Shown: in pieces, positions 4,322 to 62,477 of the stretch
Numbering within the stretch: the stretch's first letter is position 1
Layout: each line of letters starts with the position of its first letter
Assembly: GCA_050178035.1 (NCBI GenBank)
Contig: JBFXGK010000014.1
Coordinates: 8,649-72,648 of the forward strand
Length of the DNA: 64,000 bases
DNA from: Kiritimatiellia bacterium
GTDB taxonomy: Bacteria; Verrucomicrobiota; Kiritimatiellia; JAKQHR01
Reading direction: 5' to 3'
The notes under the pieces: model-generated
Database searches by the model: none
Told to the model about the DNA's origin: nothing
Seen by the model: the letters and a program-made list of their open reading frames with translations, nothing else
Made by a program: the position numbers and the translations under genes

Positions 4322-4436
4322 ATTGAAATTTTGCAAAATTCGTCAAATTATGGCCAATTTTGGCGGTTTTTGAGCATTTTGGGCCGTTTTTTGGCCTTTT
4401 TTGAGCATTTTTGACCATTTTTTGCGCATATTTTGC
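4322..4436 (+). repeat. Phased T-tract repeat block, curved-DNA-like (family copy 1). Built from TTTTTGGCCR / TTTTTGAGCA units.
   Basis: T4-6 tracts start at about 4357, 4366, 4376, 4386, 4396, 4407 and 4417, a period of about 10 bp. Homologous blocks occur at five other loci. Confidence 0.8.
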
Positions 4437-4498
4437 AGGTCGACAGGAATCCGCCAAAACCGTATAAATCAGGTTTTTCCAGTAAAGAGAGGCAGTTT

Positions 4499-7224: not shown

Positions 7225-7407
7225 GCTCGCTGGCCCGAGATGCTACAATGTATGGCCCCTTTCCAGCACGGAGTTGATGCGGCGTTATTTTATATTTTAA
7301 TGGGTACCCCCACTTCCAGACACGCATAAGCCCATCTATGCTCAAGGTGCCAGCTTGAATCCCATGTTCAGGTCACTTTCCTGACGCACACCCCAATCTC
7401 CATTCAT

Positions 7408-9558
7408 CTATTCTTGCTGCTCGACCACGCGATAGAAAAGTATTATATCTTCACGTATTGGTTCAGATATCGAGTGGATGATGTTGGTAGCAAGTATATC
7501 AGAATAAATGTTTGTCCAATTAGAGGGGTTGAGTGATGTGGCATATTCCACATCATAAGTTTCTCCCGTAAAGGCGACCCATTCAAGCCTCAAGTCCGCT
7601 TCAGTCCGTATTAGGTCTATTGCCGGACGATCCATAAGTAGATGAACTGATTTCTTCGTATTCGTAAAAACAATGGGGTTGGCATAATATTCTGCTGTTG
7701 TTTCATCGAGGTCTACAGCACCATTCCCGTTTGCATCTAAAAAAGCAAATAGATAATAATTCTGATCACTTGTAAGATTTTGAAAGTTAAATGAGCCGGG
7801 GCCGGGAAGCACCACAACATTTGGATTTGGCCCCCAGCTCAATGCAACCATGTTAGGCGATTGAACTGGATAGGAAATCCGAGACAGTTCTCCGCCTGTT
7901 AATACATTTATTGTTTTAAGATATCTGTTGCCCGCATCGTAATCTGATGTAAATACACGCAATACTCCGTTTGGATCAAAATCAAGATCCCACATATCTC
8001 CACAACAACTCGGATTCGATACAAGTGCACTTGCCCCCGTCCATGAAACATTACCCACGGTTTTACTCAAATGATAGAGTCTTCCGGACCACTCATCACT
8101 GCACCAGAGCATCCCGTCCTCATCGATGTCATTGCCCAATATGCTTAACAATCCCGTCTGCTGGCCAGGATTGACATCTCTGGCAGTTAGCGCCACAGTG
8201 TCTATCTTCTTCAGAGTTCCTTGTGCTGTTGCAGTTTCTTCATTCACCGCATAAATAATATCGTTAGTATCAAAAGAAATAGATGTGAATTTCCCACTAA
8301 TTGAATGCCGCATAATAGATGATCCGGTGCTCCGATCAATCGAATATAATTGATTTGATACGCCAGCCACAGAGAGCCATAAATTTGCGTTGCGATCAAT
8401 ATCCATTGTTTTCAACCCGCTATGATTGACACCTATTGGGCCGACAGGATTTACCTCACCATTCACAGGATCAATGGTGACTAGATTTGTTGAGTTTTCG
8501 TCAATACTATACAGAGTCCAGTTTAGAGATGGCAACGAACCATTTGTTGTTAAAACAACCCAACACAATCCGGTAGATGCCCCTCCGTACAAGAACTCCC
8601 CATAAATTGATGCATTTGTAATATCAGGTATTACATTCCACGTGGCCGTTGCTGCGCTTGTAAAGTTTGAATAGTATTTATAGTAGGTTTCGACCCAATA
8701 ATAGTACCGTTGCCCAGTCATCACCGAACCGTCGTTATAAGAGAACATTCCTTTAACCCTCCAGGTTAATGATGTAGCAGTCGGTAAATTGCTTACAGTG
8801 TTTCTAAACACACGATAATATAAACCGGTAAATCCATTCCATGACAACAAGATGTTTGTTTCCACACCCTCTACGGCCTTAAAATCTGATGCTTTTGGCA
8901 CTGGGGCACGAACCTCCCATTGTGAAGGACTAAATTCACTTGTTCCATATTCAGTGCGCGCCTTAATCCAATACCAATATATTATCGACGGTTGAGCAGT
9001 ATAATCATTGTAGGTTGGTACTGTACATTCTCCAATTTTCACCGCTCCCGCAGGTTCGTTGATGGTACTCCGCCATACATCATATGCAACAAGCGGAACA
9101 CCCCCGCTCAACCAATACCATTCGAGTTCGATATGATCAGAATACGTACTTGAATAAAGATCATGCGGTGGTGCGGGTGTAGAATAATTGGTATTTCCCG
9201 AAGAAACATCGGCAAGAAAATATATGTAATACGCACCAGTATCAGGCGAATATGTCGCCTGTTTAATTTCTTCAGATACAAAAGTAGTGCCGTAATTGTC
9301 TGTAATTCTCAGTTTAAACCAAGCGGTTGCATTCACACCCGGACTTATATCCGGTTCACCTCTATATACACTTCTATCATAATCCTCATACAGCACCCAG
9401 TTGGCATTTACATTTTGATAATATAATTCCCAGTCCACACCAAGAGGAAACGGGTCTGGAATGCAATCAATCGAAATATGCGTGTATGCAAAAGATGATG
9501 ATCCCAGTAAAATATAGAAGAGGATTAACGGGCACCACCTTGCTTGAAACACCTTCAT
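7408..9558 (-). CDS. Large secreted protein (FN3-like repeats plus a beta-propeller-like region) encoded in a low-GC island. C-terminal FN3-like tail ending LFYRVVEQQE.
   Basis: The ORF is visibly AT-rich compared with its flanks. N-terminal hydrophobic signal (MKVFQARWCPLILFYILLGSSSFA). Rich in W and Y. No recognisable enzyme motif. Confidence 0.45.
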   Translation of the reverse strand: MKVFQARWCPLILFYILLGSSSFAYTHISIDCIPDPFPLGVDWELYYQNVNANWVLYEDYDRSVYRGEPDISPGVNATAWFKLRITDNYGTTFVSEEIKQATYSPDTGAYYIYFLADVSSGNTNYSTPAPPHDLYSSTYSDHIELEWYWLSGGVPLVAYDVWRSTINEPAGAVKIGECTVPTYNDYTAQPSIIYWYWIKARTEYGTSEFSPSQWEVRAPVPKASDFKAVEGVETNILLSWNGFTGLYYRVFRNTVSNLPTATSLTWRVKGMFSYNDGSVMTGQRYYYWVETYYKYYSNFTSAATATWNVIPDITNASIYGEFLYGGASTGLCWVVLTTNGSLPSLNWTLYSIDENSTNLVTIDPVNGEVNPVGPIGVNHSGLKTMDIDRNANLWLSVAGVSNQLYSIDRSTGSSIMRHSISGKFTSISFDTNDIIYAVNEETATAQGTLKKIDTVALTARDVNPGQQTGLLSILGNDIDEDGMLWCSDEWSGRLYHLSKTVGNVSWTGASALVSNPSCCGDMWDLDFDPNGVLRVFTSDYDAGNRYLKTINVLTGGELSRISYPVQSPNMVALSWGPNPNVVVLPGPGSFNFQNLTSDQNYYLFAFLDANGNGAVDLDETTAEYYANPIVFTNTKKSVHLLMDRPAIDLIRTEADLRLEWVAFTGETYDVEYATSLNPSNWTNIYSDILATNIIHSISEPIREDIILFYRVVEQQE

Positions 9559-9586
9559 AAGCCACCGATGATTATAATGCACGTGA

Positions 9587-9808
9587 TCATTTTCGCTTAC
9601 TTATTCGTATTGCATATTCATCTGCATTATTTGGATTCACCTTAATTTTTTCAAAAGTGAAATCTGAATTCTTCTTTATGCGTTCTTGCTCCACTTCACG
9701 GGCAAAAGTTTCGGGATCAATACTCATTCCATCTAAAGTTTGCGTGGAAACCACAACACTATCGTTTGCTCCAAGAAGATCCAGTATCGTTGCTTCAAAA
9801 CTCTTCAT
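9587..9808 (-). CDS. Small hypothetical protein, co-oriented with and 5 bp upstream of the island's large secreted protein.
   Basis: 73-aa ORF with the same low-GC composition, sitting tightly upstream of 7408-9558. Confidence 0.35.
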   Translation of the reverse strand: MKSFEATILDLLGANDSVVVSTQTLDGMSIDPETFAREVEQERIKKNSDFTFEKIKVNPNNADEYAIRISKRK

Positions 9809-10752
9809 TTGTGAACCCTTTCCATATGTCTCCCTTTGTTCATTCTAGGTTGAGGGGTCAGGTCTCAACGGCCTGTACATTGAAACATTTTCCTCATCAG
9901 GCTCCTGATTCTGCTGCTCATCTCCCGCTCAAAAAAGAAACCGCCCGCGAGGCGGTGGTTCTCTTAAAGGTAGGGCGCGCACTCCGTGCGCGCCGCGGCG
10001 GTCACGGAGTGACCGCCCTACCCATGAAATCAAACATTTCATGTCGCCGCATACATGCCCCGCACAACCCGCTGTCTGCGTCCCTCGCATGTTCTGTTTA
10101 TCCCATTCGCCGGCCTTCCGATCAAGCTCTATTCGCTATCGGATGCCGCTCACAGAGCGGCTACTACAACACAAACACATGCCGCCTGGTGTAGTAGCGC
10201 CTCTGTGAGGCGCATCATCCATTCCCTATTCAGATTTTAACCATTAAGGGCATGAAGTTCATGAAGGAAAGACGAATATTCTTCCATCCGTGGGCCGCCT
10301 TTGGCATCCGTGGGGAATTTTCTTTCTCTCCTCATCTTTTCACGGAAATGCAACGGACAGGAAAAGCTACGAATGGAATTATGATATTCGCCGCTTTCTT
10401 CATTCGCTGCCAATCGCTTTTGCATACGCGTCCAACACGCCTCGCGCAAGGCTTCGCAGGACACGTCCGTGGTTTCTTTTTTCTTCATGCGCTTCTTGTC
10501 TTCATGGTGAAATCTTGTTTTGGTTGAGGATTGAAAATGAATCAGAAGATGGACAGGACAGAGCCCGTCCCTCCATGAACCGTCTCGATCGCGAGCTCCC
10601 TTCCCATTCGCGCAGGTTCGCGGTTCCATCTTTGGTTGCGGTCTGCCCCGCGGCTTTATCCGTGCAGCATTTTCTGCCACTCGCCGCTTGGATTCGGGTT
10701 TCCTCCAGTATAAAGTCCGCGCTCATGAGAACAGGGCTTTTCCGGCCCAACT

Positions 10753-17944: not shown

Positions 17945-17945
17945 C

Positions 17946-18080
17946 CATTTTGGGGCTATTTTTCATGTTTTTCACTGTTTTTGAGCATTTTTGACCAAAA
18001 AATGGCCATTTTTTGCGATTTTTTGGCATTTTGGGCCTTTTTTTGCCAATTTTTGACACTTTTTGACAGCCGCGCGTCCG
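17946..18080 (+). repeat. Phased T-tract repeat block (family copy 2).
   Basis: Eleven T4-7 tracts at about 10-bp spacing. Shares the word TTTTTGAGCATTTTTGACCA with copy 1. Confidence 0.8.
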
Positions 18081-19113: not shown

Positions 19114-20022
19114 ATGAAAACTTGCATTCTAACCATCGCATGCTGCGGTTTGCTGAGCTCGGGCATGGCCTATGCACAGGAAGCCGCAACCAACGAGGTT
19201 CTGCCCGATGTTGAACCCGCCGCCGCGGAAGATATAGTCATCAAGCCGCCGAAACCCGTGTCCCCCTTCAAAGGCTCCGACATGCTGGATGCCTTCAAGG
19301 GCAAGGATGTTTCACGCTTCGGCGTCAGCGGGCGCGTCCACAAGATGCCCGACAAGAAATCTAAAAAACGGGAAAAGGGCTGCTGGCGCGGGAAACTGGA
19401 TATCGGTGTCAGCACGGCATCGGGCAACAGCGACATCCTGCGCTACGACGGTTCGCTTACCGCATCCAAGGAGACCGAGGAGAACTATTTATTTCTGAAG
19501 GGCGCCGGGCGCTATGGCGAATGCGACCAGGAAAAGGATACCGAGAACGCCACCGGTGAAGCCAAATACCAGCACCGCTTGTCGGACAGAATGTATTCCT
19601 CACTGGACGGGCACATCATGCACGACGGCATCGCTGATGTCTCCTACCGCGCGCGCGGCAGTCTTTCGCTGGGCCGGAAGTTCATCTGGACCGACCGGAC
19701 CGTGCTGGCCATCGAAGCCGGCCCCGGCTACGTGGAAGAGCGCAAGGGCGGCGAGGAAACCGGCTTTGTGGCCGGGCGCGCGGCTCAGTATCTTGAAATC
19801 CTGATCACCGACAGCCTGCAGATCTGGCAGTCGGCAGAGTACGTCGCCGACATCACCGATTCCGCCGTCTACTTCATCAATGCCGAAGTCGGACTTGAAA
19901 CCGTTCTGGTAGCCAACATGAGCCTGCGCTTCACCGTCGAAGACCACTACGACAGCAATCCCGCCGAGGACAAGGAAAGCAACGACCTGCTGACCACCAC
20001 CTCGTTCGTCTGGAATTTCTGA
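19114..20022 (+). CDS. Outer-membrane beta-barrel protein, possibly DUF481/YdiY-like.
   Basis: Signal peptide, followed by about 250 aa of alternating beta-strand pattern, ending ...TTSFVWNF. Confidence 0.45.
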   Translation: MKTCILTIACCGLLSSGMAYAQEAATNEVLPDVEPAAAEDIVIKPPKPVSPFKGSDMLDAFKGKDVSRFGVSGRVHKMPDKKSKKREKGCWRGKLDIGVSTASGNSDILRYDGSLTASKETEENYLFLKGAGRYGECDQEKDTENATGEAKYQHRLSDRMYSSLDGHIMHDGIADVSYRARGSLSLGRKFIWTDRTVLAIEAGPGYVEERKGGEETGFVAGRAAQYLEILITDSLQIWQSAEYVADITDSAVYFINAEVGLETVLVANMSLRFTVEDHYDSNPAEDKESNDLLTTTSFVWNF

Positions 20023-20049
20023 CGCCCGCAAAAGTTCCAACCATTGGAA

Positions 20050-20137
20050 GTTTTGCCGGAAAAAGTTCCAATCATTGGAAGTTTTTGCGCGGAAAGTTCC
20101 AATGATTGGAAAAAGTCTGTTCATCCGCGTTTTCCAT
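20050..20137 (+). promoter_or_regulatory. Triple tandem array of the pseudo-palindrome AAGTTCCAA-N3-TTGGAAGTTTT (period about 31 bp), immediately upstream of the murC-like gene.
   Basis: Copies lie at about 20050-20074, 20081-20107 and 20113-20137. The core has 6-bp arms TTCCAA / TTGGAA with a 3-nt spacer (CCA, TCA, TGA). Confidence 0.6.
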
Positions 20138-20152
20138 CCTATTATAGGCCGC

Positions 20153-21493
20153 ATGTTTTTTCAGGTTGCACAGAAGCATTGCCATCTGGCGGGCGTCGCC
20201 GGGGTCGGCATGAGCGCCATGGCCGAACTGCTGATGGATCTCGGCGCGGAGGTCTCCGGCTCGGACCGGTTCCATGACCAGGGCCAGGAGGTCCCCGTTC
20301 TCCGCAGGCTGACCGCGCAGGGCATGAAGCTGGTTCCGCAGGACGGGTCCGGCATCCGCCGCGACACCGCCGCGCTGATCTGCAGCACGGCCATCGAGGG
20401 CGACAATCCCGAACTGGCCGCCGCAAAAAAGCTGAACATCCCCGTCATCACCCGCGGCGACATGCTGGGGCGGCTTGCGGAGGGCCAGCGCTGCGTGGCG
20501 GTCGGCGGAACTTCCGGTAAAACCACCGTCACCGGCATGACCGGCTGGCTTCTCACGGAACTGGGCGGCGATCCGACCGTCGCGAACGGCGGAGCCGTGA
20601 TCGGCTGGGACAGCGAAACCCGCGTCGGGAGCATCCGCGCCGGCAAATCTGATTTGTGGGTGGCCGAAGCCGACGAGAGCGACCGCTCCTGCCTTTTCCT
20701 GCATCCGGAGTGGAGCATCATCACCAACATATCCCACGATCATTTTCCGCTCCCGGAAACCATCGAGCTGTTCCGGCAGTTTGCCGCGCAGACCGCCAGG
20801 CAGGTCGTGTGCTTTCCGGAAATTGCGAAACATTTTCCCAACAGCCGCGCCATTGAGAACACGGTTTTCAGAAAAGGAGAACGATGGGTTTTCAATTTGG
20901 AAAATCTGGAATTCGCGTCTCCCCTGCCCGGACGGCATAATGCGGAAAACGCGCTGCTGGCCTGCGCGCTGTGCGTCGCGATGGAATACGATGCAAAAGC
21001 CGTCCGGAAGGCGCTGGCGAGTTTCAAGGGCATACGCCGCCGTCTGGAACTGGCGGGCGAGGCCCGCGGCATCCGGGTTTATGACGACTATGCCCACAAC
21101 CCGGCCAAGATCGCGGCGGCATGGGCCACCGTGGCGGAAAATTCATCCCGCGTGCTGGGCGTGTGGCGGCCGCACGGCTTCGGGCCGATGCGGCAGATGA
21201 AGGATTCGCTGATCGAAATGTTCTGCGCCACGCTCCGCAAAGATGATGAACTTTTCCTCCTGCCCGTTTATTACGCAGGCGGAACCGCCGCGAAGGATAT
21301 TTCATCGGACGATCTCGCCGCCGCGCTGCAGGCACGGGGCGTGAAGGCTTCGGCGGTCCGGAATTACGATGACCTGACGAAACAGATTCTTGAAACAGTG
21401 ACCGCCCGTGACGCCGTCCTGGTCATGGGCGCGCGCGATCCGGAGCTGCCTGTTTTTGCGCGGCAGACGGCAAAGAGGATTCATGACCAGTAA
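20153..21493 (+). CDS. murC: Mur ligase, most likely UDP-N-acetylmuramate--L-alanine ligase.
   Basis: N-terminal HLAGVAGVGMSAMAELL, P-loop GGTSGKTTVTGM, and the AEADESDRS motif. The ORF's upstream ATG at 20075 merely reads through the repeat array. Confidence 0.65.
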   Translation: MFFQVAQKHCHLAGVAGVGMSAMAELLMDLGAEVSGSDRFHDQGQEVPVLRRLTAQGMKLVPQDGSGIRRDTAALICSTAIEGDNPELAAAKKLNIPVITRGDMLGRLAEGQRCVAVGGTSGKTTVTGMTGWLLTELGGDPTVANGGAVIGWDSETRVGSIRAGKSDLWVAEADESDRSCLFLHPEWSIITNISHDHFPLPETIELFRQFAAQTARQVVCFPEIAKHFPNSRAIENTVFRKGERWVFNLENLEFASPLPGRHNAENALLACALCVAMEYDAKAVRKALASFKGIRRRLELAGEARGIRVYDDYAHNPAKIAAAWATVAENSSRVLGVWRPHGFGPMRQMKDSLIEMFCATLRKDDELFLLPVYYAGGTAAKDISSDDLAAALQARGVKASAVRNYDDLTKQILETVTARDAVLVMGARDPELPVFARQTAKRIHDQ

Positions 21494-25893: not shown

Positions 25894-28800
25894 ATGAAAA
25901 AGGGGTTGCTGGTTCTCTCATCTTTCTGCTTGTTGCACTTCGCGTTTTCTGCTCCCGCGCAAGATTTAGATTTCGGTGATGCCCCGGAGGGAGCACTGGC
26001 ATATCCGGCAGGTGGTGTTTCAGGCTCTTTCCCAACTTGCCAAAACGTACCCGTAGCAGGCTGGATCCAACATGGCTGGGTTTGGGCATATTTCGGACTT
26101 TCCAAAGATTATGAGACGGAGGGTAATGCTGGCAGCTGCCCTTTATTCAATCCCAACATGTATGACCAGGATGAATGCATGGGCGGCAACGACGCCGGAT
26201 TGATGTTTCCCGATTCTTTTACCATAGTCGGACCGCTCGGATCAGAAACAGTCCAGCCATGCAGTCCCGGTGCAACCAATACGCTGGGAGCCACCTGCCA
26301 GACGGCTGTCTGGGGAACAAATATTGACATTCTGGTGGTCAACAACATGCCTGTGGTCGGCTATGTCAACGTGCTTATGGACTGGGATCAAAACGGTGTA
26401 TGGTCTGGCAGTTCAACGTGCACGGCCGTCTCTGTACCAGAACACGTACTGATCAACTTCCCGGTGCCGGCCCCATATGCCGGCCCCCTGTCAGCCCTAG
26501 GGCCTCCGAGCTTTGTCATTGGGCCTAACGCCGGCCACGTGTGGTGCCGTTTTTCAATCACTGAAACGAATGTGCCTCTTCCATGGACCGGCGAGGGACA
26601 GTTTGAAGATGGCGAAAGCGAGGACTATCTTCTGGAAGTGCTCGCCGGAGGGACAGAAGAAGAGATAGACTTCGGCGATGCACCGGATCCAACCTATCCA
26701 ACACTGCTGGCTAATAACGGAGCGCGGCACACAATCGTGGCGGGGCTTTCCCTTGGAGCGCTGATTGACGCTGAAGGGGACGGCCAGCCAACAGCCAAAG
26801 CCGATGGAGATGACGTAAATCCTCCGATCGCTTTGGACGACGAGGATGGGGTCACCTTCTTGAACGCGATGTTTGCAGGCGTGCCGAATACTATCCAGGT
26901 GGTGGCACTCGTTCCGGCCGGCACGAACGCCTATCTGAGCGCGTGGATGGATTTCGACGGCGACGGGACATGGACAAACGCCGGTGAGCAAATTCTGGCC
27001 GACACCCCCGTGACAACCGGCACCAACTACGTAAAGTTCGTGCCGGGAGCCATCACGGCGACCAATTCGGTCTTTGCGCGTTTCCGCTTGAGCACACAGA
27101 CAAACCTGACCATCACAGGATTGGCACCTGACGGCGAAGTGGAGGACTATGAGGTCCCCATCGTTCCTGTCAAATGGCTGCAGCCTCCGGATCTGACCAC
27201 CACAGGTGTTGATGTGGACAATACCAGCGTCAGACTCGCAGACGACTTCCTCTGCAACCAGACCGGGCCTCTCACCGATTTCCACATCTGGACCTCATTC
27301 AGCGGAGACGTATTCCCCGAGGATCTTACAAGCCTGAGTTTCACCTTATATCTCTATGCAGATGTCCCGGCAGGTGTGGACCTGCCCTACAGCCATCCCG
27401 GCGAGGAACTCTGGGCTCAAACCTTCGCGGCCGGCACATACCATGCCGGACTTGTATCGAGCGGGATCACCGAGTGGTGGTTTGATCCGGTGCTGGGAAC
27501 ATGGACGTTCCCTGGCGATTCTATGGTCTTCCAATACGATTTTCTCATTCCAGAAGAAGAGGCCTTTGTCCAAACCAACGGCACCATCTACTGGCTGGGC
27601 GTGAAATTCGACGAGGCGGATCCCGGCGGATACCAGCTGGGCTGGAAGAGTTCGCAGGCGCAATGGAACGACGATGCCTGCTGGTATGATGGAGCAATAT
27701 GGCAGGAGCTCCGGTATGGAGATGGACATGAGTTGGCACCAGATTCGATGGATTTGGCATTCGCCGTGACTGGTATCGAGAAGGAGGAAGAAGAGCAGCT
27801 CGACTTCGGCGACGCGCCCGATCCGACCTATCCCACCGTCCTGGCCAGCGGCGGGGCCCGTCATGTCATCGTCCCCGGCGTCTTCATGGGTGCGTCCGTT
27901 GATGCCGAACCCGACGGACAGCAGGATCCGAACTCCCTTGGCGATGACAACAACCCTCCGGCAGGCATTGACGATGAAGATGGGATAATTCTGCCTTCCA
28001 TGCTGGTGGCCGGATCCGCCGCGCCGGTTCAGGTCACGGCCTCCACCAGCGGTTTCCTCAACGTCTGGATTGACTTCAACTGCGATGGTGACTGGGCAGA
28101 CGTCGGCGAGCAGGTATTTCTGAACCATGCCATCAGCGCAGGACTGAATGCTGTTCTGATGGGAATTCCACCGCCGCCGGTAACCAAATCCGGCGGACCG
28201 CATTCCCGCTGGCGCTTCACCACCTATCCACCTGCGGTTCCAGCCTACACAAATTTGGAAATGGACGGCGAAGTTGAAGATTATGAAGTCCGTCTGGAGG
28301 TGCTGGATTTCGGCGACGCTCCGGATCCGTCATATCCAACACTTGCGGCGAGCACCGGCGCCTGCCATCGGATTCCCTCCATTTATTATCTGGGGGCGAC
28401 GGCTCCCGATGATGATCCCGACGGCCAGCCCACTTCAGATGCGACAGGTGACGACAGCGATGGCACGGACGACGAAGACGGTGTGACTCTTGGAGGATCG
28501 CTTATTCAGGGTCAATTAACCGCAGCCACAGTCGTCGCCTCCACAAACGGCTGGCTCGATGCCTGGATGGACTTCAATGCGGACGGTGACTGGGCAGACT
28601 CCAGTGAACCCATTGCGTCATCCTCGAACCTGCTGCCGGGGGCCAACACATTGAACATCAGCGTTCCCTTCACGGCCGCGCTCGGCCCGACCTTTGCCCG
28701 CTTCCGCTTCAGCAGTTCCGCCGCCGGGCTGAACCCCGACGGACTGGCCACGGACGGCGAAGTGGAAGATTACATGATCACGATTTATCAGCGCGGACCG

Positions 28801-29049
28801 GACACCAACACATTCTTCATCACCAACATCACGCGCGGCGCCAGCTCCGCCCTGATAGAATGGAGCGGCGGCACCGGCGCAACTTATCAAACACAATACA
28901 CCTTGAACCTGCTCAGCACCGATAATCCGCCGTGGACCGCCTGGGGCCCCTATGTAACCGGCACGCCGCTCGCTCAAACCGACACCAACATGGTGCAAAC
29001 AGCCAAGTTCTACCGTGTGGTTGCGCCATACGCCCCACCGCCCCCATAA
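25894..29049 (+). CDS. Secreted multi-repeat protein. Four repeats of about 190 aa, each starting (L/I)DFGDAP(D/E)..YP and ending DGEVEDY(E/M)(V/I) (GEVED-type domains). One distinct central domain. C-terminal FN3-like tail ending AKFYRVVAPYAPPPP.
   Basis: Signal peptide MKKGLLVLSSFCLLHFAFSAPAQD. DFGDAPD units begin at about 25960, 26668, 27799 and 28303. GEVED-type motifs at residues about 235, 417, 792 and 950. Confidence 0.7.
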   Translation: MKKGLLVLSSFCLLHFAFSAPAQDLDFGDAPEGALAYPAGGVSGSFPTCQNVPVAGWIQHGWVWAYFGLSKDYETEGNAGSCPLFNPNMYDQDECMGGNDAGLMFPDSFTIVGPLGSETVQPCSPGATNTLGATCQTAVWGTNIDILVVNNMPVVGYVNVLMDWDQNGVWSGSSTCTAVSVPEHVLINFPVPAPYAGPLSALGPPSFVIGPNAGHVWCRFSITETNVPLPWTGEGQFEDGESEDYLLEVLAGGTEEEIDFGDAPDPTYPTLLANNGARHTIVAGLSLGALIDAEGDGQPTAKADGDDVNPPIALDDEDGVTFLNAMFAGVPNTIQVVALVPAGTNAYLSAWMDFDGDGTWTNAGEQILADTPVTTGTNYVKFVPGAITATNSVFARFRLSTQTNLTITGLAPDGEVEDYEVPIVPVKWLQPPDLTTTGVDVDNTSVRLADDFLCNQTGPLTDFHIWTSFSGDVFPEDLTSLSFTLYLYADVPAGVDLPYSHPGEELWAQTFAAGTYHAGLVSSGITEWWFDPVLGTWTFPGDSMVFQYDFLIPEEEAFVQTNGTIYWLGVKFDEADPGGYQLGWKSSQAQWNDDACWYDGAIWQELRYGDGHELAPDSMDLAFAVTGIEKEEEEQLDFGDAPDPTYPTVLASGGARHVIVPGVFMGASVDAEPDGQQDPNSLGDDNNPPAGIDDEDGIILPSMLVAGSAAPVQVTASTSGFLNVWIDFNCDGDWADVGEQVFLNHAISAGLNAVLMGIPPPPVTKSGGPHSRWRFTTYPPAVPAYTNLEMDGEVEDYEVRLEVLDFGDAPDPSYPTLAASTGACHRIPSIYYLGATAPDDDPDGQPTSDATGDDSDGTDDEDGVTLGGSLIQGQLTAATVVASTNGWLDAWMDFNADGDWADSSEPIASSSNLLPGANTLNISVPFTAALGPTFARFRFSSSAAGLNPDGLATDGEVEDYMITIYQRGPDTNTFFITNITRGASSALIEWSGGTGATYQTQYTLNLLSTDNPPWTAWGPYVTGTPLAQTDTNMVQTAKFYRVVAPYAPPPP

Positions 29050-29109
29050 CGATGAAAAGCCGTCTCGACTTGCGCGGCCGGTTGGATTAGTGTGGCGGCA
29101 TTGGAAATC

Positions 29110-29198
29110 AAAAGTTCCAACCATTGGAAGTTTTGCGTAAAAAAGTTCCAATGATTGGAAGTTTTTTGGAGAAAAGTTCCAACCATTGGAAGTTTTGA
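29110..29198 (+). promoter_or_regulatory. Second triple tandem array of the AAGTTCCAA-N3-TTGGAAGTTTT pseudo-palindrome, immediately upstream of the glycogen synthase gene.
   Basis: Copies at about 29110-29134, 29140-29167 and 29172-29198. An extra half-site CATTGGAAAT lies at about 29096. Near-identical to the 20050-20137 array. Confidence 0.6.
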
Positions 29199-29211: not shown

Positions 29212-31038
29212 ATGAGTCCTGAAACAGTGACCGGGAAAAAATCATCATCCGTCGCGGAGAACCTGCGCCCGCTGCTTTTTGAAACCGCGTGGGAAGTCTG
29301 CCAGAAGATCGGCGGCATCTACACGGTGATCCGCAGCAAGGTGCCGGAGGTCATGTCCACATGGGGCCAGCGCTACTGCCTGCTGGGCCCCTACAATCCC
29401 GAGGTCTCGCCGCTGGAGTTCGAGGAGATGGAGCTCGACGGCCCCATAGCGCCGGTCGTCAAGAAGATGCGCGAAAAGGGCTTTGCGGTGCACACCGGCT
29501 ACTGGCTGGTGACCGGACGCCCGCGGGTGATCCTGTTTGAATACAAGCAGTTTGAGGAACAGCTTCCGGAAATCCGGAAGATGTTCCTGGACAACCACCA
29601 GATTCCGGTCGCGCCCGAGGACAGCCTCACCAACGAGGTTGCGATGTTCGCATGGGTGCTGATCAGTTTCTTTACCATGCTGAACGACCTCAAGTCGCTC
29701 AAGAATCCGGTGATTGCCCATTTTCACGAATGGATGTCGGCGATGGCGATTCCGGAATTGCGCCGCCGCAGCAACCGCGCGGGCATTGTCTTCACGACGC
29801 ACGCCACAATGCTCGGACGCTACCTCGCGATGAACAACCCGGAGTTTTACACGAACATGACCGGCGTGGACTGGCAGGCGCAGGCGGCCCATTTCAACAT
29901 TATGGGGCCGGTGGTCATCGAGCGGGCCGCCGCGCACGGCGCGCATGTTTTCACGACGGTCAGCAAGGTGACCGGACGCGAATGCGAGGCGCTGCTTGGC
30001 CGCGCGCCGGACGTGCTGCTGCCCAACGGGCTCAACCTTCGCCGGTTCGTGGCCATGCACGAGTTCCAGAACCTGCACCGCAGCTACAAGGAGAAGATCC
30101 ACCAGTTCGTGATGGCGCACTTTTTCCCGAGCTACACGTTCGACCTCGACAACACCCTCTATTTTTTCACTGCAGGGCGCTACGAATACCGCAACAAGGG
30201 TTTCGACATGACCCTCGAGGCCATGGCGCGCCTGAACTACCGCATCAAGCTCAGCGGCCTCAACCGGACGATCGTGTTTTTCCTGATCACCCGCCAGGCC
30301 TACAAGTCCGCCACCGCCGAGGTGTTCCGGCGGCAGGCCATGCTCGAGGAAATGCGCGGCGCATGCGAGTCCATCAAGGATTCTCTGGGAAACAAACTTT
30401 TAATTGCGGCCGCGAAGGGCCATATCCCCGAATATGAAACACTGGTGGACGAGACTTCCCGCATGCGCCTGCGCCGCATCATGCACGCATGGCCGTCCAG
30501 TGCGCTGCCGCCGTTCGTCACGCATGAACTGGTCAGTGACGACGAAGTGATGCAGAAAATCCGCGCCTGCAAGCTGATCAACCGCCCCGACGATCCCGTG
30601 AAGGTGATTTATTATCCCGAGTTCGTCTCCACCAGCGACGGCCTCATCGGCATTGACTATGACAACTTCGTGCGCGGCTGCCATCTGGGCATCTTCCCGA
30701 GCTACTACGAGCCGTGGGGCTACACGCCGCTCGAGTGCGTGGCCTGCGGCGTGCCGGCCGTCACCAGCGACCTCAGCGGCTTCGGAAGCTACCTCAACCG
30801 ATGCATGCCGGACTGGGCCGAGCGCGGACTTTATGTGGCTCCGCGCAGCGAAAAATCCGAGGACGAGGCCACGAACGACCTCACCAACTGGCTCTACGAC
30901 TTCGCCCAGCTCGACCGCCGCGAGCGCATCGCGCTCCGCAACAAGGTGGAGCGTTCGTCGGATGATTTCGACTGGCACAACCTTGGCAAGAACTACACCG
31001 AGGCCTACGAGATGGTTTGCCGCAGAGCCGGGTTTTGA
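29212..31038 (+). CDS. Eukaryote-type (GT3 family) glycogen synthase.
   Basis: LLFETAWEVCQKIGGIYTVIRSKVPEV...YCLLGPY closely parallels the Gsy/GYS N-terminus. About 610 aa. ATG at 29212 has a GAGAGAGG RBS. The listed ORF start at 29155 only translates the repeat array. Confidence 0.7.
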   Translation: MSPETVTGKKSSSVAENLRPLLFETAWEVCQKIGGIYTVIRSKVPEVMSTWGQRYCLLGPYNPEVSPLEFEEMELDGPIAPVVKKMREKGFAVHTGYWLVTGRPRVILFEYKQFEEQLPEIRKMFLDNHQIPVAPEDSLTNEVAMFAWVLISFFTMLNDLKSLKNPVIAHFHEWMSAMAIPELRRRSNRAGIVFTTHATMLGRYLAMNNPEFYTNMTGVDWQAQAAHFNIMGPVVIERAAAHGAHVFTTVSKVTGRECEALLGRAPDVLLPNGLNLRRFVAMHEFQNLHRSYKEKIHQFVMAHFFPSYTFDLDNTLYFFTAGRYEYRNKGFDMTLEAMARLNYRIKLSGLNRTIVFFLITRQAYKSATAEVFRRQAMLEEMRGACESIKDSLGNKLLIAAAKGHIPEYETLVDETSRMRLRRIMHAWPSSALPPFVTHELVSDDEVMQKIRACKLINRPDDPVKVIYYPEFVSTSDGLIGIDYDNFVRGCHLGIFPSYYEPWGYTPLECVACGVPAVTSDLSGFGSYLNRCMPDWAERGLYVAPRSEKSEDEATNDLTNWLYDFAQLDRRERIALRNKVERSSDDFDWHNLGKNYTEAYEMVCRRAGF

Positions 31039-34740: not shown

Positions 34741-34862
34741 GATTTCCAATAAGAAAATCGTTTCGGGGTGTTTTTGCCATTTTTTGGCCGTTTTTGGGCG
34801 TTTTTTTGTGTTTTCGGCCATTTTTTGGCCATTTTGGTGCGTTTTTTGGCGTTTTTTGAACC
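34741..34862 (+). repeat. Phased T-tract repeat block (family copy 3).
   Basis: TTTTTGCCATTTTTTGGCCGTTTTTGGGCGTTTTTTTGTG... with tracts every 9-11 bp. Confidence 0.75.
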
Positions 34863-35289: not shown

Positions 35290-35374
35290 TGGTGGGCGAG
35301 GCGGGACTCGAACCCGCAAGCCTTTCGGCACAAGATCCTAAGTCTTGCGTGTCTGCCAATTTCACCACTCGCCC
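35290..35374 (-). tRNA. tRNA-Leu (anticodon UAG).
   Basis: 85-nt cloverleaf with a long variable arm and anticodon loop CTTAGGA. Acceptor GGGCGAG / CTCGCCC + A + CCA. Confidence 0.85.
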
Positions 35375-43381: not shown

Positions 43382-43394
43382 CATAAAAATAGCG

Positions 43395-43500
43395 AAAATA
43401 TGCGAAAAGCGACCGTTTTTCGCGATTTTTTGCTGTTTTTGGCCTTTTTTGGCGTTTTTGAGCCAAAAATGAGCAATTTTGGCCGTTTTTGGCCGTTTTT
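43395..43500 (+). repeat. Phased T-tract repeat block (family copy 4).
   Basis: CGTTTTTCGCGATTTTTTGCTGTTTTTGGCCTTTTTTGGCGTTTTTGAGCC...GGCCGTTTTTGGCCGTTTTTT. Confidence 0.75.
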
Positions 43501-43503
43501 TAA

Positions 43504-46164
43504 CTATTTTGAGGCGTCTGTGTTAAAGCCGGAATTTTCAGCCTGGATCTGTCCCTGAGACAGTTCGCTCTTCAACTGCTCAACCGGACGCTGCTTCAAA
43601 TCCTCGATGGCCGCAGGGTCATTGCGCTGGGCCATGATCATCCAGCTCACTTTTGCGCCCGCAACGCCTCCGCCGACCACAAAGCGGTTCCCGCTGATTT
43701 CTTCCTTCACATACAGATTCATCTGCGCGCCCACGGGCGTCAGGAGATATTGCGGATTGATGTTCAGACGGTCGAAGTAAGCCGGAAGCTGCACAACGGC
43801 TTCACCATTTGCATCCAGCACTTCGGTTCCGTTGTAGATATTCTGGACCACCGGCCCCTCTGCGCAAAAATGCCGCAGCACTTTGTTTTCCGGGTCCAGC
43901 GGGTGATCAATGACAAAAGCTTTTGTGCTCCAGGCTCCAGTGCCGAATGTCTGGCGGTATTTGATGTTGGCATCCGCTGTACCGGTGCCGTCAATATAGA
44001 GCGTTCCGCGCACCGCCGTGCTGTTGTTATATAAATTAGTGATATTGTGCCCGATGGCAATGCGTTCGCTTCCATATGCTGTGCTGGCCCCGGCACCAAT
44101 GGCAATATTCGTGGAACTGGCCTGGGCTCCATATCCAATGGCCACGCCGGGACCAATGCCGGAATTTGCCGATCGGCCAACGGCAACGCCGCCGTTATAA
44201 CGCGCATTGGCACTGGGTCCCACTGCAACTCCACCACCATAATCGGCCATGGAACTGCTGCCGATGGCAACACCAGCATTGGAATGGACATTGGCCAAAT
44301 AGCCGATAGCTATGCCTGAGGCATGTGCATTGGCACCCCGTCCCACGGACACAGCATAACCATCCGCATTCGCGCCTGAGCCCAACGCCGTGGCGTTAGT
44401 AAGCGCAACAGCCTGATAGCCGACGGCCGTATCATACTGCTTCATAGCGCGGGCTTCAGATCCAATGGCCACAGACATGTTGGTTGCCTTGGCCAGATGA
44501 CCAATACCCACGGAGTAACTGAAACCTGTGGCGCCTGTGCCCATGGCGACGCCCCACCAGGCTCCATTGGCCGAGCTGCCCAGCGCAACCCCGCTCCATC
44601 CGTTCGCATCGTATCCGATCTCAATCGCACCACCCGGAGAGTTGGTGATGACAAGTTCGCCGCCGGCGCCGATATTGAATCCCAGAGCACCGGTCATCTG
44701 ATCGCCCGACACCTGAACATACTGCGATGGATCGCCAATGAGATTGCTCCAGCTTCCAGATCCAAAAGATGAGCGATAATAAATTCCCGTTCCGCCATCC
44801 AGATAAAGCGAACCGCGAATGGCGGCCGTATTGTTGATTGCGTTGGTGACATTGTGGCCAATGGCAATGCGTTCGCTTCCCGCACTGGCCCTTGCAGCCG
44901 CACCGATGGCAATGTTGGTTCTCGCACTGCTGAGGCTGAGGCTGTTGGCGGCGGCATCATTGATCGTCAGTGTGCCCGTCATGGTGTCGCCGGTTTTCTG
45001 CACAAAGCCTGTAGTTGAGCCGCCGCTGGCCAGCGCAGTCCACACCCCGCTTCCGAAGTTAGTGCGGAAATACACATTTGACCCGCCATCCAGAAACAGG
45101 GTGCCCCGCATGGCCACGGCGTTGTCCTGGGGAGTGGAAACCGCATGCCCGATGGCAATGCGCTCTGAACCCACGCCGGATGCCGCCATCCATCCGATGG
45201 CAATGTTGGTTGATGCTCCGCATGCGGAATTGCCGATGGCAATGCCGGTATTGTCGGCATCGGCAAATGCGCCGACCGCCACTCCGGCAAGAGATCCGTT
45301 AGCACTCCGGCCCACCGCCACTCCGGCGTTGTATCCATCGGCGGCTCTGCCGATGGCCGTGCCGTTGTTGCCCCCGTTGGCGTTTGCGCCCACCGCGGCG
45401 CCGGACCAGTAGCCGAAGGCGCCGTAGCCAAGGGCCGCGCCCATCTGGCTGCCATCCGCATAGGCGCCCACGGCGGCGCCCGTAATGCTTCCGTCACTGT
45501 TGTAGCCAACGCCCGCGCCGTAATCGGAACCGGCTGCCTGCGAACCAACGGCCACGCCCCGTGAGGACCCGTACGAGTTGTTGCCGACGCCCACGCCATA
45601 AGCCGATCCATTCGCCGTATTGCCGACCGTTGCCCCGTAATTGAAAGCATTGGCGTCAAATCCAACGGCTGCACCGTAGGAATTTCCGTTGGCGACATTG
45701 CCAACCATGACATCCTGCCCTGAGCTGGAGATAATCAAGTCGCTGCCGGCCCCGGCGTTCATGTGAAGCGGCCCGGTCATCGTGTCCCCGCTTTTCCGGA
45801 CGGCCGTGATGGCATAAGCCACCTGATTGATTTGCTCACGCGGAGACAGAGTGACACCGTTGACCGCCACCTCGATATAAACAATGGGATTCGTCAGTGC
45901 CGAATAAAGAGTGGGTGTCAGGGCGTTGATCCCAATCGTGGTTGAATAGAGTCCGTCCACGGCGGTTACCTTCTGGGTCTCGGCATATAGAAGCGTTCCG
46001 CCCGCGGAAGCATTATAAAGCCGAAAAACGTTGGTTACTGTACCGTTTACGAGATTCGTGCCAACAATCAGCCGACCCTGGTAATTGAACTTCGTATCGG
46101 TTTCCCCCGCATAAACAGCAGAAACCGCGAATGCGAGAAGAACTGCAAACATCAACCTCTTCAT
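43504..46164 (-). CDS. Giant secreted Gly/Ala-rich repeat protein (YadA-head-like NIAIG/ERIAIGH repeats). Adhesin or tail-fibre-like.
   Basis: Signal peptide MKRLMFAVLLAFAVSAVYA. Dozens of xAxGxxAxG repeats. Recurring TNIAIG(A/W)xAxx(A/G)SERIAIGH(N/A)(V/I)(S/T). Confidence 0.6.
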   Translation of the reverse strand: MKRLMFAVLLAFAVSAVYAGETDTKFNYQGRLIVGTNLVNGTVTNVFRLYNASAGGTLLYAETQKVTAVDGLYSTTIGINALTPTLYSALTNPIVYIEVAVNGVTLSPREQINQVAYAITAVRKSGDTMTGPLHMNAGAGSDLIISSSGQDVMVGNVANGNSYGAAVGFDANAFNYGATVGNTANGSAYGVGVGNNSYGSSRGVAVGSQAAGSDYGAGVGYNSDGSITGAAVGAYADGSQMGAALGYGAFGYWSGAAVGANANGGNNGTAIGRAADGYNAGVAVGRSANGSLAGVAVGAFADADNTGIAIGNSACGASTNIAIGWMAASGVGSERIAIGHAVSTPQDNAVAMRGTLFLDGGSNVYFRTNFGSGVWTALASGGSTTGFVQKTGDTMTGTLTINDAAANSLSLSSARTNIAIGAAARASAGSERIAIGHNVTNAINNTAAIRGSLYLDGGTGIYYRSSFGSGSWSNLIGDPSQYVQVSGDQMTGALGFNIGAGGELVITNSPGGAIEIGYDANGWSGVALGSSANGAWWGVAMGTGATGFSYSVGIGHLAKATNMSVAIGSEARAMKQYDTAVGYQAVALTNATALGSGANADGYAVSVGRGANAHASGIAIGYLANVHSNAGVAIGSSSMADYGGGVAVGPSANARYNGGVAVGRSANSGIGPGVAIGYGAQASSTNIAIGAGASTAYGSERIAIGHNITNLYNNSTAVRGTLYIDGTGTADANIKYRQTFGTGAWSTKAFVIDHPLDPENKVLRHFCAEGPVVQNIYNGTEVLDANGEAVVQLPAYFDRLNINPQYLLTPVGAQMNLYVKEEISGNRFVVGGGVAGAKVSWMIMAQRNDPAAIEDLKQRPVEQLKSELSQGQIQAENSGFNTDASK

Positions 46165-46390: not shown

Positions 46391-46450
46391 AAGGGGGAAA
46401 ACTGGTAGAGGCGCAGGGACTCGAACCCTGGACCCGCTGATTAAGAGTCA
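46391..46450. repeat. attL-type direct repeat: duplicated 3' 48 nt of tRNA-Lys plus about 10 nt downstream.
   Basis: 46403-46450 is identical to 55571-55618. The flanking GGGGAAAACTGG matches GGGGAAAAACTGG. Confidence 0.85.
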
Positions 46451-46537
46451 ATAGCATACGTGCATTTAATGGGCTTTTTTTGATTGACTGTCTCAAAACT
46501 TGCTGTAATGTCCGGGGATATGTAGTCATATAAGGCA

Positions 46538-47899
46538 ATGGAACGCAATAGAGGAAAGGCGGCTAAAATGACACGGAAGCACCGGACCGGGAACTTATAC
46601 AGGCGGGGAAATGTTTGGTGGCTCAGGTACATGGTGGAGGGTAAAACCGTTTATGAATCCCTGCACTGCACCAGCCGGGATGATGCCGAGAAGGAGCGCA
46701 AGCGGATCATGCGCCCCTTGATGGCCGCCGACAAAGCCGACGTGCTGGCCAATATCTCAAAGCGACTGACCGACGCGAAGGACGAACAGGCCGCCGCCAA
46801 CGAGGAAGCCAATCCCCCGCTGGCAATCGCCGCCGCTTGGGATGCGTACTATGACAGCAAGAGCCGTCCCGATTCATCGGAGAGAACGCTGGCCGGATAT
46901 GAGAGCGCATGGAAAAGATTCAAGCGGTGGATCGAGAAGGAACACCCGGACATCAAACAGATGCGCGATGTTTCAAAGAACCTTGCCGCCGCTTACGCAA
47001 AAAAACTTGAAGCTGATGGAGTGACCGCCAGCACGTTCAACCAGCATATCGGGCTGATGCGTCTGGTATGGCGCACACTGGCAGAGGAGATTCGCGCAGG
47101 TTCAAACCCGTGGATGGACATGCGCCGGAAGAAACTCGGAGCGCAGAAGGTGGCGCACCGCCGCCGCAATCTGACACCTGAGCAATTTGATACCCTTCTA
47201 AAATGCGCTGGCAGTGCAGACATGCACGACCTTCTTTTTACTCTTGGATGGACTGGCCAGCGTCTCGCGGATATTGTTCTGTTGAAATGGAACTCAATAG
47301 ATTTCAAGCGTAAGGTTGTCACGATTCACCCGCTGAAATTGCGGCGCACAGGCAAGGAGGTTCATATTCCCCTGCTGCCACAGCTTGCGGATATTCTCAG
47401 AATGAGAAAGCGGAACGCCGCCGGGCCTCATGTGTTCCCCGAACTGGTGGAAGATTATCAGCGTGATCCGTCAGCACTGAGCAAGCGGATTGCCGCCGCC
47501 TTTGACAAGGCCGAACTGAACCCCCGCGAAAAACTGCCCGGAGTATCTAGGGCCGTTGTCGTTTATGGGGCGCATAGTCTGAGGCACTACTTCGCAACGC
47601 AAGCCCTTGCCGCAGGGATACCCTCCGAGATCGTGAAGCGAATCACCGGACACACCAGCGACACCATGCTTGCCAACTACGAGCATTTGGATGCGCGATT
47701 TATCGGAGAACTGGCGAACAAGCTACAGGCTCAACCACTGAACCCGCAGAAGCAAATCGCCGCACCGCCAGCGCATGAAGATAATCCCCTGCCCCCGTGG
47801 GCCGCGAAAATGATCGAGGGAATGACAGCAAAGAACTGGAAGAAAGTGAAAACCGAACTGCTCAAGATTCATGCGGAACCACAGGAGGCCGGACAATGA
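46538..47899 (+). CDS. int: Tyrosine site-specific integrase.
   Basis: C-terminal catalytic region HSLRHYFATQALAAGIP...ITGHTSDTMLANYEH (R, HxxR, Y). Confidence 0.85.
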   Translation: MERNRGKAAKMTRKHRTGNLYRRGNVWWLRYMVEGKTVYESLHCTSRDDAEKERKRIMRPLMAADKADVLANISKRLTDAKDEQAAANEEANPPLAIAAAWDAYYDSKSRPDSSERTLAGYESAWKRFKRWIEKEHPDIKQMRDVSKNLAAAYAKKLEADGVTASTFNQHIGLMRLVWRTLAEEIRAGSNPWMDMRRKKLGAQKVAHRRRNLTPEQFDTLLKCAGSADMHDLLFTLGWTGQRLADIVLLKWNSIDFKRKVVTIHPLKLRRTGKEVHIPLLPQLADILRMRKRNAAGPHVFPELVEDYQRDPSALSKRIAAAFDKAELNPREKLPGVSRAVVVYGAHSLRHYFATQALAAGIPSEIVKRITGHTSDTMLANYEHLDARFIGELANKLQAQPLNPQKQIAAPPAHEDNPLPPWAAKMIEGMTAKNWKKVKTELLKIHAEPQEAGQ

Positions 47900-48972
47900 A
47901 AAAGAAATCCTCACAGAACAAGAACCGCAAGCCCAAAAATATCAGCCTGTCTCTTGACTGCTTCGGGCTGTCAAACGCGGTGCATCCATATAGTGGAGAA
48001 GTTGGCGGGCAGGGAGAACAAGAGCGCATGAAGTGCAAGAAATGCGGCGGGCTGGCAATGTGGTACGGGGATGCAAATAACCCTGCCGCGCTGTATGTCA
48101 AATGCAAGAAATGCGGATGCCGCGAATATGATGTCGTGCCAAGAGAAGAGATTATTGATGATGGCGAAGGGGAGTTGAGAAAGCCACTGTCAAAAGCTGA
48201 TGCGAAGGCGGCGCGTGATGCCATATCGAAGGCAGAGGACAGCATGAGGGCGGCGCACAGCGTCTTGCTGAAATATGCCGGAAGCTCAGACTACGACATT
48301 GCCGCATATGCAATGCGCGTCCTGCTGAAAGAAACTCTTGCGCTTACTCAAAACGCGTCCGGTCTGTCTGGTGGAACAAATGCTGAGCTGGTGATGGCAA
48401 TCGCCGCGCAAAGTCATCATTGGCCTGTTATGGTGGGCATTCAACCCGAAAGCTGGAAGGCCGCAAGGAAACAAATCGAACGTATCGGACTTGGAACCAG
48501 AATCCCCATTGCTGAACAGTACCGCAACAAGAAAGCATTCAAACCTGATCGAGCCACAAACGCCATTGCATGGGAGATACTGCAAACAATTATAAAGACC
48601 CGCGCCGAGGTTCAGCAGTACGACCGGAACACCCTCAAGCATGGCCGCCTGAACGGCGAACCTGTGCCGGAATGGGTTTGCCTTTGTCGGGATCTGCCAG
48701 CACTGACACCCGATAAGAATATCCTGAAAGATTACCGCGATCTTGCCCGAAAGCACATTGCCACCATGAAAGCAAAAAGAGTTTCCAAGCATGAAACCGC
48801 TTTTGAGCTTCTTCTGCGAACCGCCGCCCCTGAATGGTTTGATTCCATTTGGGGCCGATGCACTGACGAGACAAGCCGGAAGAAAAGCAATCGCACTACT
48901 CGCGGCGCACTTCGTAAAAATGCCGAGGATGATATTCTGTCCGCACTGGTCACGATAGCAAAGAACCTTTGA
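47896..48972 (+). CDS. Hypothetical protein with an N-terminal C4 zinc ribbon. Translationally coupled to int (ATGA).
   Basis: CKKCGG...CKKCGC motif. No other recognisable domain. Confidence 0.4.
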   Translation: MKKKSSQNKNRKPKNISLSLDCFGLSNAVHPYSGEVGGQGEQERMKCKKCGGLAMWYGDANNPAALYVKCKKCGCREYDVVPREEIIDDGEGELRKPLSKADAKAARDAISKAEDSMRAAHSVLLKYAGSSDYDIAAYAMRVLLKETLALTQNASGLSGGTNAELVMAIAAQSHHWPVMVGIQPESWKAARKQIERIGLGTRIPIAEQYRNKKAFKPDRATNAIAWEILQTIIKTRAEVQQYDRNTLKHGRLNGEPVPEWVCLCRDLPALTPDKNILKDYRDLARKHIATMKAKRVSKHETAFELLLRTAAPEWFDSIWGRCTDETSRKKSNRTTRGALRKNAEDDILSALVTIAKNL

Positions 48973-55570: not shown

Positions 55571-55646
<76 letters not shown>

Positions 55647-62472: not shown

Positions 62473-62477
62473 ACTTT

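Follow-up and report, generated by a model that had tools for sequence, protein, structure and literature searches.

The REP and BIME elements of Enterobacteria and Pseudomonas are abundant, clustered palindromes that lie mostly outside genes, often just past stop codons and also in the gaps between convergent genes. HIP1 (GCGATCGC), a hyper-abundant palindrome of cyanobacteria that extends over a whole phylum or class and is conserved both within and between ORFs, has been proposed to play a role in nucleoid structure, and no function at the level of single genes has been found for it (PMC5861425). As to proteins, dimers of the Lrp family that interact on clustered palindromes, spaced by two or three helical turns, have about 100 bp of DNA wrapped around them (PMC2995911), binding of NrdR needs whole turns between the centres of its boxes (PMC12051234), and Irr, a member of the Fur family, reads the ICE box TTTAGAA-N3-TTCTAAA (PMC1698941).

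The window, by which we mean the whole 64-kb stretch of Kiritimatiellia DNA that was analysed, carries six copies of TTCCAA-N3-TTGGAA where 0.17 would be expected (exact-match count; none of 100 shuffles reaches six). The core is a 15-bp palindrome, and its copies stand about three helix turns apart in two arrays of three units each. The targets of Lrp/AsnC (FFRP) proteins, for example the three boxes of Ss-LrpB, are similar in that the boxes, 13-15 bp long, are palindromes interrupted by a short spacer at the centre and grouped as two to four sites per cluster with centres two or three turns apart on one face. Lrp boxes, however, differ in sequence, are degenerate and promoter-associated and number tens to hundreds, whereas the Kiritimatiellia arrays have a 12-base invariant core, reach up to one per roughly 3 kb and occur in coding sequence as well. 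Pairs of NrdR boxes, the palindromes of which lie 15-16 bp apart, have the same 31-32-bp period; yet these boxes have another sequence, come in pairs and are found only upstream of ribonucleotide reductase operons, in contrast to arrays of 2-7 units spread over the whole genome. The ICE box shares with TTTCCAA-N3-TTGGAAA the 7-3-7 geometry and five of the seven bases of each half-site, but it occurs singly, as an operator of alpha-proteobacterial iron genes, and the likeness may serve as a lead on the type of reader and for nothing beyond that. All three likenesses are matters of resemblance, not of membership.

Like REP and BIME, the Kiritimatiellia arrays are abundant clustered palindromes, often situated close behind stop codons. 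REPs, by contrast, form longer hairpins that are rich in G+C and have GTAG as their conserved foot, and RAYT transposases mobilise them; divergent gaps seldom contain them, coding sequence lacks them, and they are free of helical phasing and not conserved throughout a class. Assignment to REP/BIME is not supported, given the missing stem covariation, the 11 arrays in divergent gaps (among the matches listed) and the units in coding sequence. HIP1 is an uninterrupted 8-mer linked to orphan methyltransferases, with a periodicity of 10-90 kb and no 31-bp tandem arrays; unlike it, the Kiritimatiellia motif does not occur in coding sequence in the lineage of the window. What sets the element apart from known iterated palindromes and phased operator arrays is its helical phasing across genome and class. 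No description of this genome-wide and class-wide element was found in the searchable literature, and it is apparently undescribed. What could be the significance of keeping one palindrome in register with the helix at so many places?

Two arrays in the window and their neighbouring genes

The units of both arrays and the features that adjoin them are the following (positions are those of the window).

19114..20022, + strand: DUF481 gene (PF04338, 121.9 bits); its stop codon is 8 bp ahead of array 1
20030..20054: array 1, unit 1, AAAAGTTCCAACCATTGGAAGTTTT, core 20035-20049; kept in USDE_metabat.36
20060..20086: array 1, unit 2, AAAAAGTTCCAATCATTGGAAGTTTTT, core 20066-20080; 31 bp past unit 1
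20093..20114: array 1, unit 3, AAAGTTCCAATGATTGGAAAAA, core 20097-20111; right flank A-rich, not GTTTT
20116..20152, + strand: conserved block from array 1 to the ATG, TCTGTTCA ... TATTAT (20140-20145) AGGCCGC ATG, from the alignment with USDE_metabat.36
20153..21493, + strand: Mur ligase, MurC-like; true start ATG 20153, the TTG at 20075 being an artefact of the repeat
25894..29049, + strand: DUF7901/GEVED-domain gene; its stop codon is 60 bp ahead of array 2
29065..29093, + strand: promoter-like block TCGACT-N17-TAGTGT (TAATTT in USDE_metabat.36), from the same alignment
29110..29134: array 2, unit 1, AAAAGTTCCAACCATTGGAAGTTTT, core 29115-29129
29139..29167: array 2, unit 2, AAAAAAGTTCCAATGATTGGAAGTTTTTT, core 29146-29160
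29172..29196: array 2, unit 3, AAAAGTTCCAACCATTGGAAGTTTT, core 29177-29191
29212..31038, + strand: GT3 (eukaryote-type) glycogen synthase (PF05693, 652 bits); true start ATG 29212

Exact cores start at 20035, 20066 and 20097 in array 1 and at 29115, 29146 and 29177 in array 2, and Tandem Repeats Finder reports both loci with a period of 31 (20030-20111 and 29110-29197); with the A-tract and T-tract flanks included, the arrays span 20030-20114 and 29110-29196. In the window the consensus unit reads AAAAG-TTCCAA-NNN-TTGGAA-GTTTT, and about 6 nt of variable linker come after it. The initial annotation was right about two triple arrays with a 31-bp period, but array 1 lies about 20 bp further to the left than the range of 20050-20137 given there, which for this reason omits unit 1. 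Nor are the two arrays identical, as they had been called: the central triplets are CCA/TCA/TGA in array 1 and CCA/TGA/CCA in array 2, their linkers are not alike, and in array 1 the GTTTT flank is missing from unit 3, the exception to flanks (AAAAG...GTTTT) that are in general conserved, as had been said. The distance of 15-20 bp that was supposed to separate each array from a start codon applies to array 2 (ATG 29212), whereas for array 1 (ATG 20153) it is 38-42 bp. The suspicion that the annotated ORF-finder starts at 20075 and 29155 are just the translated repeat (LEVFARKVPMIGK... and LEVFWRKVPTIGS...) proved correct. A CRISPR array had been dismissed for its short spacers, and we concur: 16-17 bp separate neighbouring cores, of which only about 6 nt vary, arrays have 2-7 units, and the element is present at hundreds of loci.

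The products of the two downstream genes had been recognised correctly. The Mur ligase scores best with TIGR01082 (murC; 289.9 bits, under the cut-off of 335), and the glycogen synthase is a GT3 enzyme by its PF05693 match. A TATTAT box stands 7 nt ahead of the Mur ligase ATG in a stretch with no ribosome-binding site (20140-20155; conserved in USDE_metabat.36), and judging by its sequence the block at 20116-20152 is a putative promoter of a leaderless or near-leaderless Mur ligase mRNA, in which case array 1 would lie at about -40 to -125. The glycogen synthase has a ribosome-binding site, GAGAGAGGTGG, immediately past array 2. The block at 29065-29093 scores under the promoter-scan threshold; if used as a promoter, it would cause array 2 to be transcribed as part of the glycogen synthase 5' UTR. 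With array 1 upstream and array 2 downstream of the respective putative promoters, the position of the arrays relative to promoters would not be fixed.

The sole public contig that encodes an identical glycogen synthase (Logan, SRR27751817; L181, 4178 bp) begins 161 bp 5' of the gene, at a point about 50 bp ahead of array 2, and includes that array; its assembly may have broken near this repeat. Elsewhere in the window, a low-GC island (45%; 7225-10728), probably acquired horizontally, contains a minus-strand 724-aa gene that matches DUF4394. About 9.2 kb of the window (46398-55620; GC 51% versus about 59% around it) is an integrated element. It has a 53-bp direct repeat at its two ends (46398-46450 and 55568-55620), a sequence that corresponds to the 3' part of tRNA-Lys (55573-55648), and carries a tyrosine integrase (46538-47899), a protein with a BT4734-like N-terminal domain and an ERCC4 nuclease.

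Distribution across the Kiritimatiellia

A motif scan for AAGTTCCAANNNTTGGAAGTT with one genome per species returned at least 93 loci. Among the matches listed, motif arrays occur in about 20 genomes labelled Kiritimatiellia, Kiritimatiellales, Pontiellaceae or 'Verrucomicrobiota', and the matches in other phyla are ten chance singletons with no second unit nearby. True arrays are also found in three bins named as other phyla (L048, L050 and L070). One of them, L070, is a 1.2-kb contig binned as Oscillospiraceae with a three-unit array adjoining a tRNA-Leu identical to that of the window (35290-35374); it is probably Kiritimatiellia DNA, and all three are therefore probably mis-binned contigs. 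The tRNA-Leu of the window has no array, and the pair thus records the gain or loss of one. In IMG/VR, seven stretches on six viral contigs (L174-L180) bear arrays of 2-4 units with 31-32-bp spacing; these contigs presumably represent phages or prophages of Kiritimatiellia.

The matches listed comprise 104 arrays of at least two units, namely 58 with two, 30 with three, 14 with four, one with five and one with seven. By context, 49 are co-directional, 15 convergent, 11 divergent, 6 intragenic and 23 undetermined; these counts are approximate, coming from a simple codon-usage gene caller of our own and from loci picked by the motif search, and the mix is close to the expectation for any intergenic element. 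Divergent placement was confirmed by hand at L011, L024, L052 and L089, and a hand check likewise found the convergent gap at L004 filled by its array, which leaves no more than 4 bp to either stop codon. In co-directional gaps, the listed arrays begin at a median of 21 bp past the upstream stop codon and end 64 bp before the first possible start. The initial annotation had expected a genome-wide motif search to define a regulon; among the matches listed, it instead returned sites in convergent, divergent, co-directional and intragenic settings. The orientation of the flanks is correlated neither with gene direction nor with GC skew, and the asymmetry between G...G and C...C flanks, considered as a strand signal, turned out to be largely an artefact of the search pattern.

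Relatives of the window lineage have hundreds to thousands of arrays per genome, and in bin-1020 they recur every 1.8-4.5 kb within 8-kb pieces; in the window lineage they are fairly thinly spread, at 2 per 64 kb. If the arrays have the architectural role discussed below, a hundred or more loci of this genome may be flanked by them, the murC-like gene and the glycogen synthase gene being just two of these. Arrays in convergent gaps are present in USDE_metabat.36 too (L004, L054, L068 and L090). At the loci sampled in the window lineage, the 5' ends that face an array belong mostly to housekeeping genes, namely those for MetRS, ProRS, a release factor, enolase, PFOR, MetH, AsnB, DapA and SerA-like and FabI-like enzymes.

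Conservation of position, spacing and helical phase

Nucleotide identity between USDE_metabat.36 and the window is about 80% across 13 kb. The comparison of upstream regions in relatives, which had been recommended at the outset, finds both window arrays kept in place there with three units each; their linkers of 5-7 nt have diverged fully, and the cores are intact except for a single A-to-G substitution in the third unit of array 2. Positional conservation extends to more distant genomes. An array lies between the same gene pair in LKB_V8 bin 121 and USDE_metabat.36 (proteins 46-49% identical), the DapA gene is preceded by one in the same two genomes (68% identity), and in USDE_metabat.36 and bin-1020 an array stands 3' of a gene whose products are 46% identical. 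At these positions, with flanking proteins 46-68% identical, copy number and period differ. With no more than 25 USDE loci sampled, a match to one of them for two of the three LKB loci would be far above random placement. Homologues of the glycogen synthase were uninformative in this respect: of 80 from metagenomes, only the one that is 90% identical has the array, the others being at most 59% identical and probably outside the class. An all-against-all comparison of 201 array flanks detected shared sequence only between true orthologues, and the arrays are therefore not part of a larger mobile element.

Spacing is far more uniform than the linkers are. Among the matches listed, 206 unit-to-unit distances could be tallied, 177 of which are 31, 32 or 33 bp (108, 64 and 5, respectively), with a further six at 21-22 bp; the remaining 23 distances are longer and tend to fall close to multiples of 10.5 bp (Rayleigh R 0.53, p about 0.0015). 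The period is genome-specific, being 31 bp only in USDE_metabat.36 and the window and 32-33 bp only in bin-1020, with unrelated linkers, and A/T-rich positions recur every 10-10.5 bp along the arrays. Whole-turn spacing is thus kept and linker sequence is not, which is the geometry of an array of sites on one face of the helix.

Constraint on the palindrome and the RNA alternative

Exact units make up 217 of the 279 arrayed units among the matches listed. Variants gather at the innermost and outermost positions of the half-sites, and the inner TCCA/TGGA is almost invariant. Units that had not been selected by the search pattern have C or G without exception as their central base; T is preferred immediately to their left and A immediately to their right, A-rich and T-rich segments come further out, and the linker is G+C-rich in its middle.

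Is it the hairpin or the duplex that is being maintained? Across the 279 arrayed units, compensatory double changes in the stem are not enriched and come close to what independence predicts, and single variants show no sense-strand bias of G.U over A.C (11 versus 9). Near-invariant half-sites with neither compensation nor G.U bias therefore argue for recognition as duplex DNA and against a maintained hairpin. One unit folds weakly (-6.6 or -4.0 kcal/mol), and for complete arrays the folding energy is -32 to -43 kcal/mol (z about -6 to -8). No Rfam family matches the arrays, the only matches in the window being four tRNAs. The terminator scan of the window left the arrays unflagged because only two of the six stem pairs are G-C; it found 17 canonical terminators versus 19.8 expected, that is, no enrichment. 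An intrinsic terminator was set aside given this silence of the scan and the arrays in divergent gaps and inside coding sequence.

Units inside coding sequence

In Pontiellaceae-type genomes, units occur deep within real genes and in all three codon phases, where they are read as FQxLE, xPxxGK or SKxWK. Their density rises to nine in 6.3 kb, with seven of the nine deep in genes (GMC3.52, MAG23, B12227 and Tobar_G79). Such HIP1-like abundance within genes is not seen in the window, in USDE_metabat.36 or in most other genomes, and the window lineage has its units solely as intergenic arrays. The genes concerned encode a sulfatase, an MMPL transporter, a radical SAM enzyme (unit inside the domain), UvrB (unit beside the Walker A motif) and a PreP peptidase, and in the last three the coding sequence is conserved. 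Alignment of PreP with the structure 2fge indicates that its pair of units, 32 bp apart, arose via substitutions and without gaps (VPNLGK/IIFQTLEKL to EENVQK/LIMDTLKKL). Helical phasing therefore persists where the DNA also codes for protein, and promoters, UTRs, terminators and insertion elements consequently fail as general explanations.

Phased T-tract arrays

Five intergenic arrays of another kind, at 4335-4440, 17945-18070, 34765-34862, 43383-43505 and 62372-62480 of the window, consist of 9-12 phased T-tracts (TTTTTGGCCA-like) over about 90-120 bp, with a period of 10.1-10.5 bp (R 0.91-0.97). In all five, nearly all tracts read as T on the + strand, and four of the five also contain 1-4 A-tracts. 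Two of the arrays fill real convergent gaps, one between a SprT-like gene and an 886-aa gene and the other between NFACT-R and a 497-aa gene. A looser scan counted seven such arrays in the 64 kb of the window, against a single one in the 175 kb of USDE_metabat.36; other relatives had none. These arrays probably have an intrinsic curvature; they share length and phase with the TTCCAA arrays and may be functionally related to them. At L030 (1195-1340), four TTCCAA units run straight into phased T-tracts (attttttgttttggcgctgtttttggcgg), and this hybrid links the two kinds of array.

A possible architectural role and its alternatives

We are inclined, if only slightly, to regard the arrays as rows of high-affinity, same-face sites for one oligomerising, sequence-specific DNA-binding protein with a global architectural role throughout the class. 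A dimer would read the two TCCA/TGGA half-sites, with centres 9 bp apart, across an A/T-S-A/T centre; dimers bound along one array would touch each other and bend or wrap 60-125 bp, and in this genome the in-phase A4/T4 tracts may aid the bending. Arrays would in this way punctuate intergenic DNA genome-wide in an architectural or insulating capacity, for example as anchors of loops or supercoils or as roadblocks, and would modulate adjacent promoters only secondarily. We infer the binding, the oligomerisation or wrapping and the physiological role of the arrays from patterns of the kind described above. The cooperative binding of a dimer to one face of the helix, already part of the first proposal, finds its support in comparative evidence: whole-turn spacing, free linkers, invariant half-sites and no covariation.

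Placement that is neutral to gene context, true divergent promoter regions included, counts in favour of an architectural role. Against it counts that each unit in the window lineage resembles an A-tract, a hairpin and a T-tract in succession. Known nucleoid proteins have degenerate motifs, and a 12-base site that is invariant even in coding sequence, which is reminiscent of uptake sequences and of HIP1, likewise speaks against a nucleoid protein. As to the identity of the reader, no DNA-binding candidate gene was found in the 64-kb window. The Fur-family gene next to the array at L002, the only gene for a transcription factor seen beside an array, was considered as a source of the binder and rejected, as it encodes an ordinary PerR with homologues across phyla, and its orthologues (63-69%) have PerR boxes and no TTCCAA units. 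At L182-L184, classical PerR boxes, e.g. TTAGTAATCATTACTAT, lie upstream of perR and ahpC in a conserved PerR-AhpC-ferritin neighbourhood.

Could the palindrome instead be tied to uptake, recombination or methylation, with the arrays merely being clusters of the motif? About one unit per kb in Pontiellaceae-type genomes, within genes, in all codon phases and by way of substitution, would agree with this, as would a motif common to the whole class and found on a few viral contigs, and HIP1 sets a precedent in being conserved within and between ORFs alike, with a proposed role in nucleoid structure (PMC5861425). We nevertheless consider such an origin unlikely, since it leaves unexplained the strict spacing of 21-22 or 31-33 bp with its long-range 10.5-bp phasing, the genome-specific period and the restriction of the window lineage to intergenic arrays. 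We also know of no uptake sequence that is palindromic or forms phased arrays. Placement close to stop codons (the median of 21 bp and the convergent gaps in which both stops are abutted, to 4 bp) fits a function at 3' ends as well, with REP/BIME-like or terminator-like hairpins ending or stabilising transcripts in both directions; the A4-hairpin-T4 form of the window unit, the strong folding of complete arrays and the lack of enrichment of canonical terminators in the window point the same way. This, too, we hold to be improbable. The stem has too few G-C pairs to be picked up by a terminator scan, neither covariation nor a sense-strand G.U bias is apparent, arrays occupy 11 divergent gaps among the matches listed, several of them checked by hand, and phased units occur within essential genes. 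In most genomes, moreover, the immediate flanks are T...A, so that the hairpin would be followed by A, not U; a conserved period has no rationale at the level of RNA, and there is neither a GTAG-type foot nor a larger shared element.

The two readings of the initial annotation fare worse. It had placed the murC-like ligase and the glycogen synthase under a dedicated dimeric transcription factor bound to triple operators, in keeping with the position of both window arrays ahead of + strand genes, their conservation in the sister species, the sparseness of arrays in this lineage and the housekeeping character of many array-facing 5' ends (two aminoacyl-tRNA synthetases, enolase, PFOR, MetH and DapA among them). 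Such co-regulation is nonetheless very improbable and, as a two-gene operator model, largely refuted by the distribution of the arrays, which occupy every intergenic context in about 20 genomes (among the matches listed), number hundreds to thousands per genome in relatives and lie also in coding sequence; even USDE_metabat.36 has them in convergent gaps, and in the window one lies upstream and the other downstream of the likely promoter. The alternative of a MITE or other small mobile element inserted ahead of both genes would suit a repetitive, palindromic and mostly intergenic sequence, but can hardly be upheld: the 201 flanks are unrelated apart from true orthologues, terminal inverted repeats and target-site duplications are absent outside the units, positions are conserved between orthologous loci at divergence levels of 46-80%, units stay intact while linkers diverge, and those in coding sequence arose by substitution.

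The architectural reading may be carried one step further, to a hard-wired chromatin code in which a lineage-specific protein would wrap arrays at most transcription-unit boundaries and, in some families, along gene bodies. In the genome of the window, T-tract arrays of equal length (90-120 bp) and free of protein would largely replace them and pin loops or supercoils between genes. We put this forward tentatively, as a possibility that we rather doubt.

Implications for the Kiritimatiellia

Some consequences are practical. The arrays trick ORF finders into false TTG starts and break metagenome assemblies, an example being the public contig that starts about 50 bp before array 2. The motif could also serve to mark Kiritimatiellia, both taxonomically and as hosts of phages. 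If the units in UvrB and PreP are docking sites, they provide a natural test of how strongly an architecture at the level of DNA can override coding constraint. Should the architectural role be true, the arrays would be a bait for a new nucleoid or general regulatory factor, and they would map the punctuation of the chromosome for a whole, poorly studied class of PVC bacteria.
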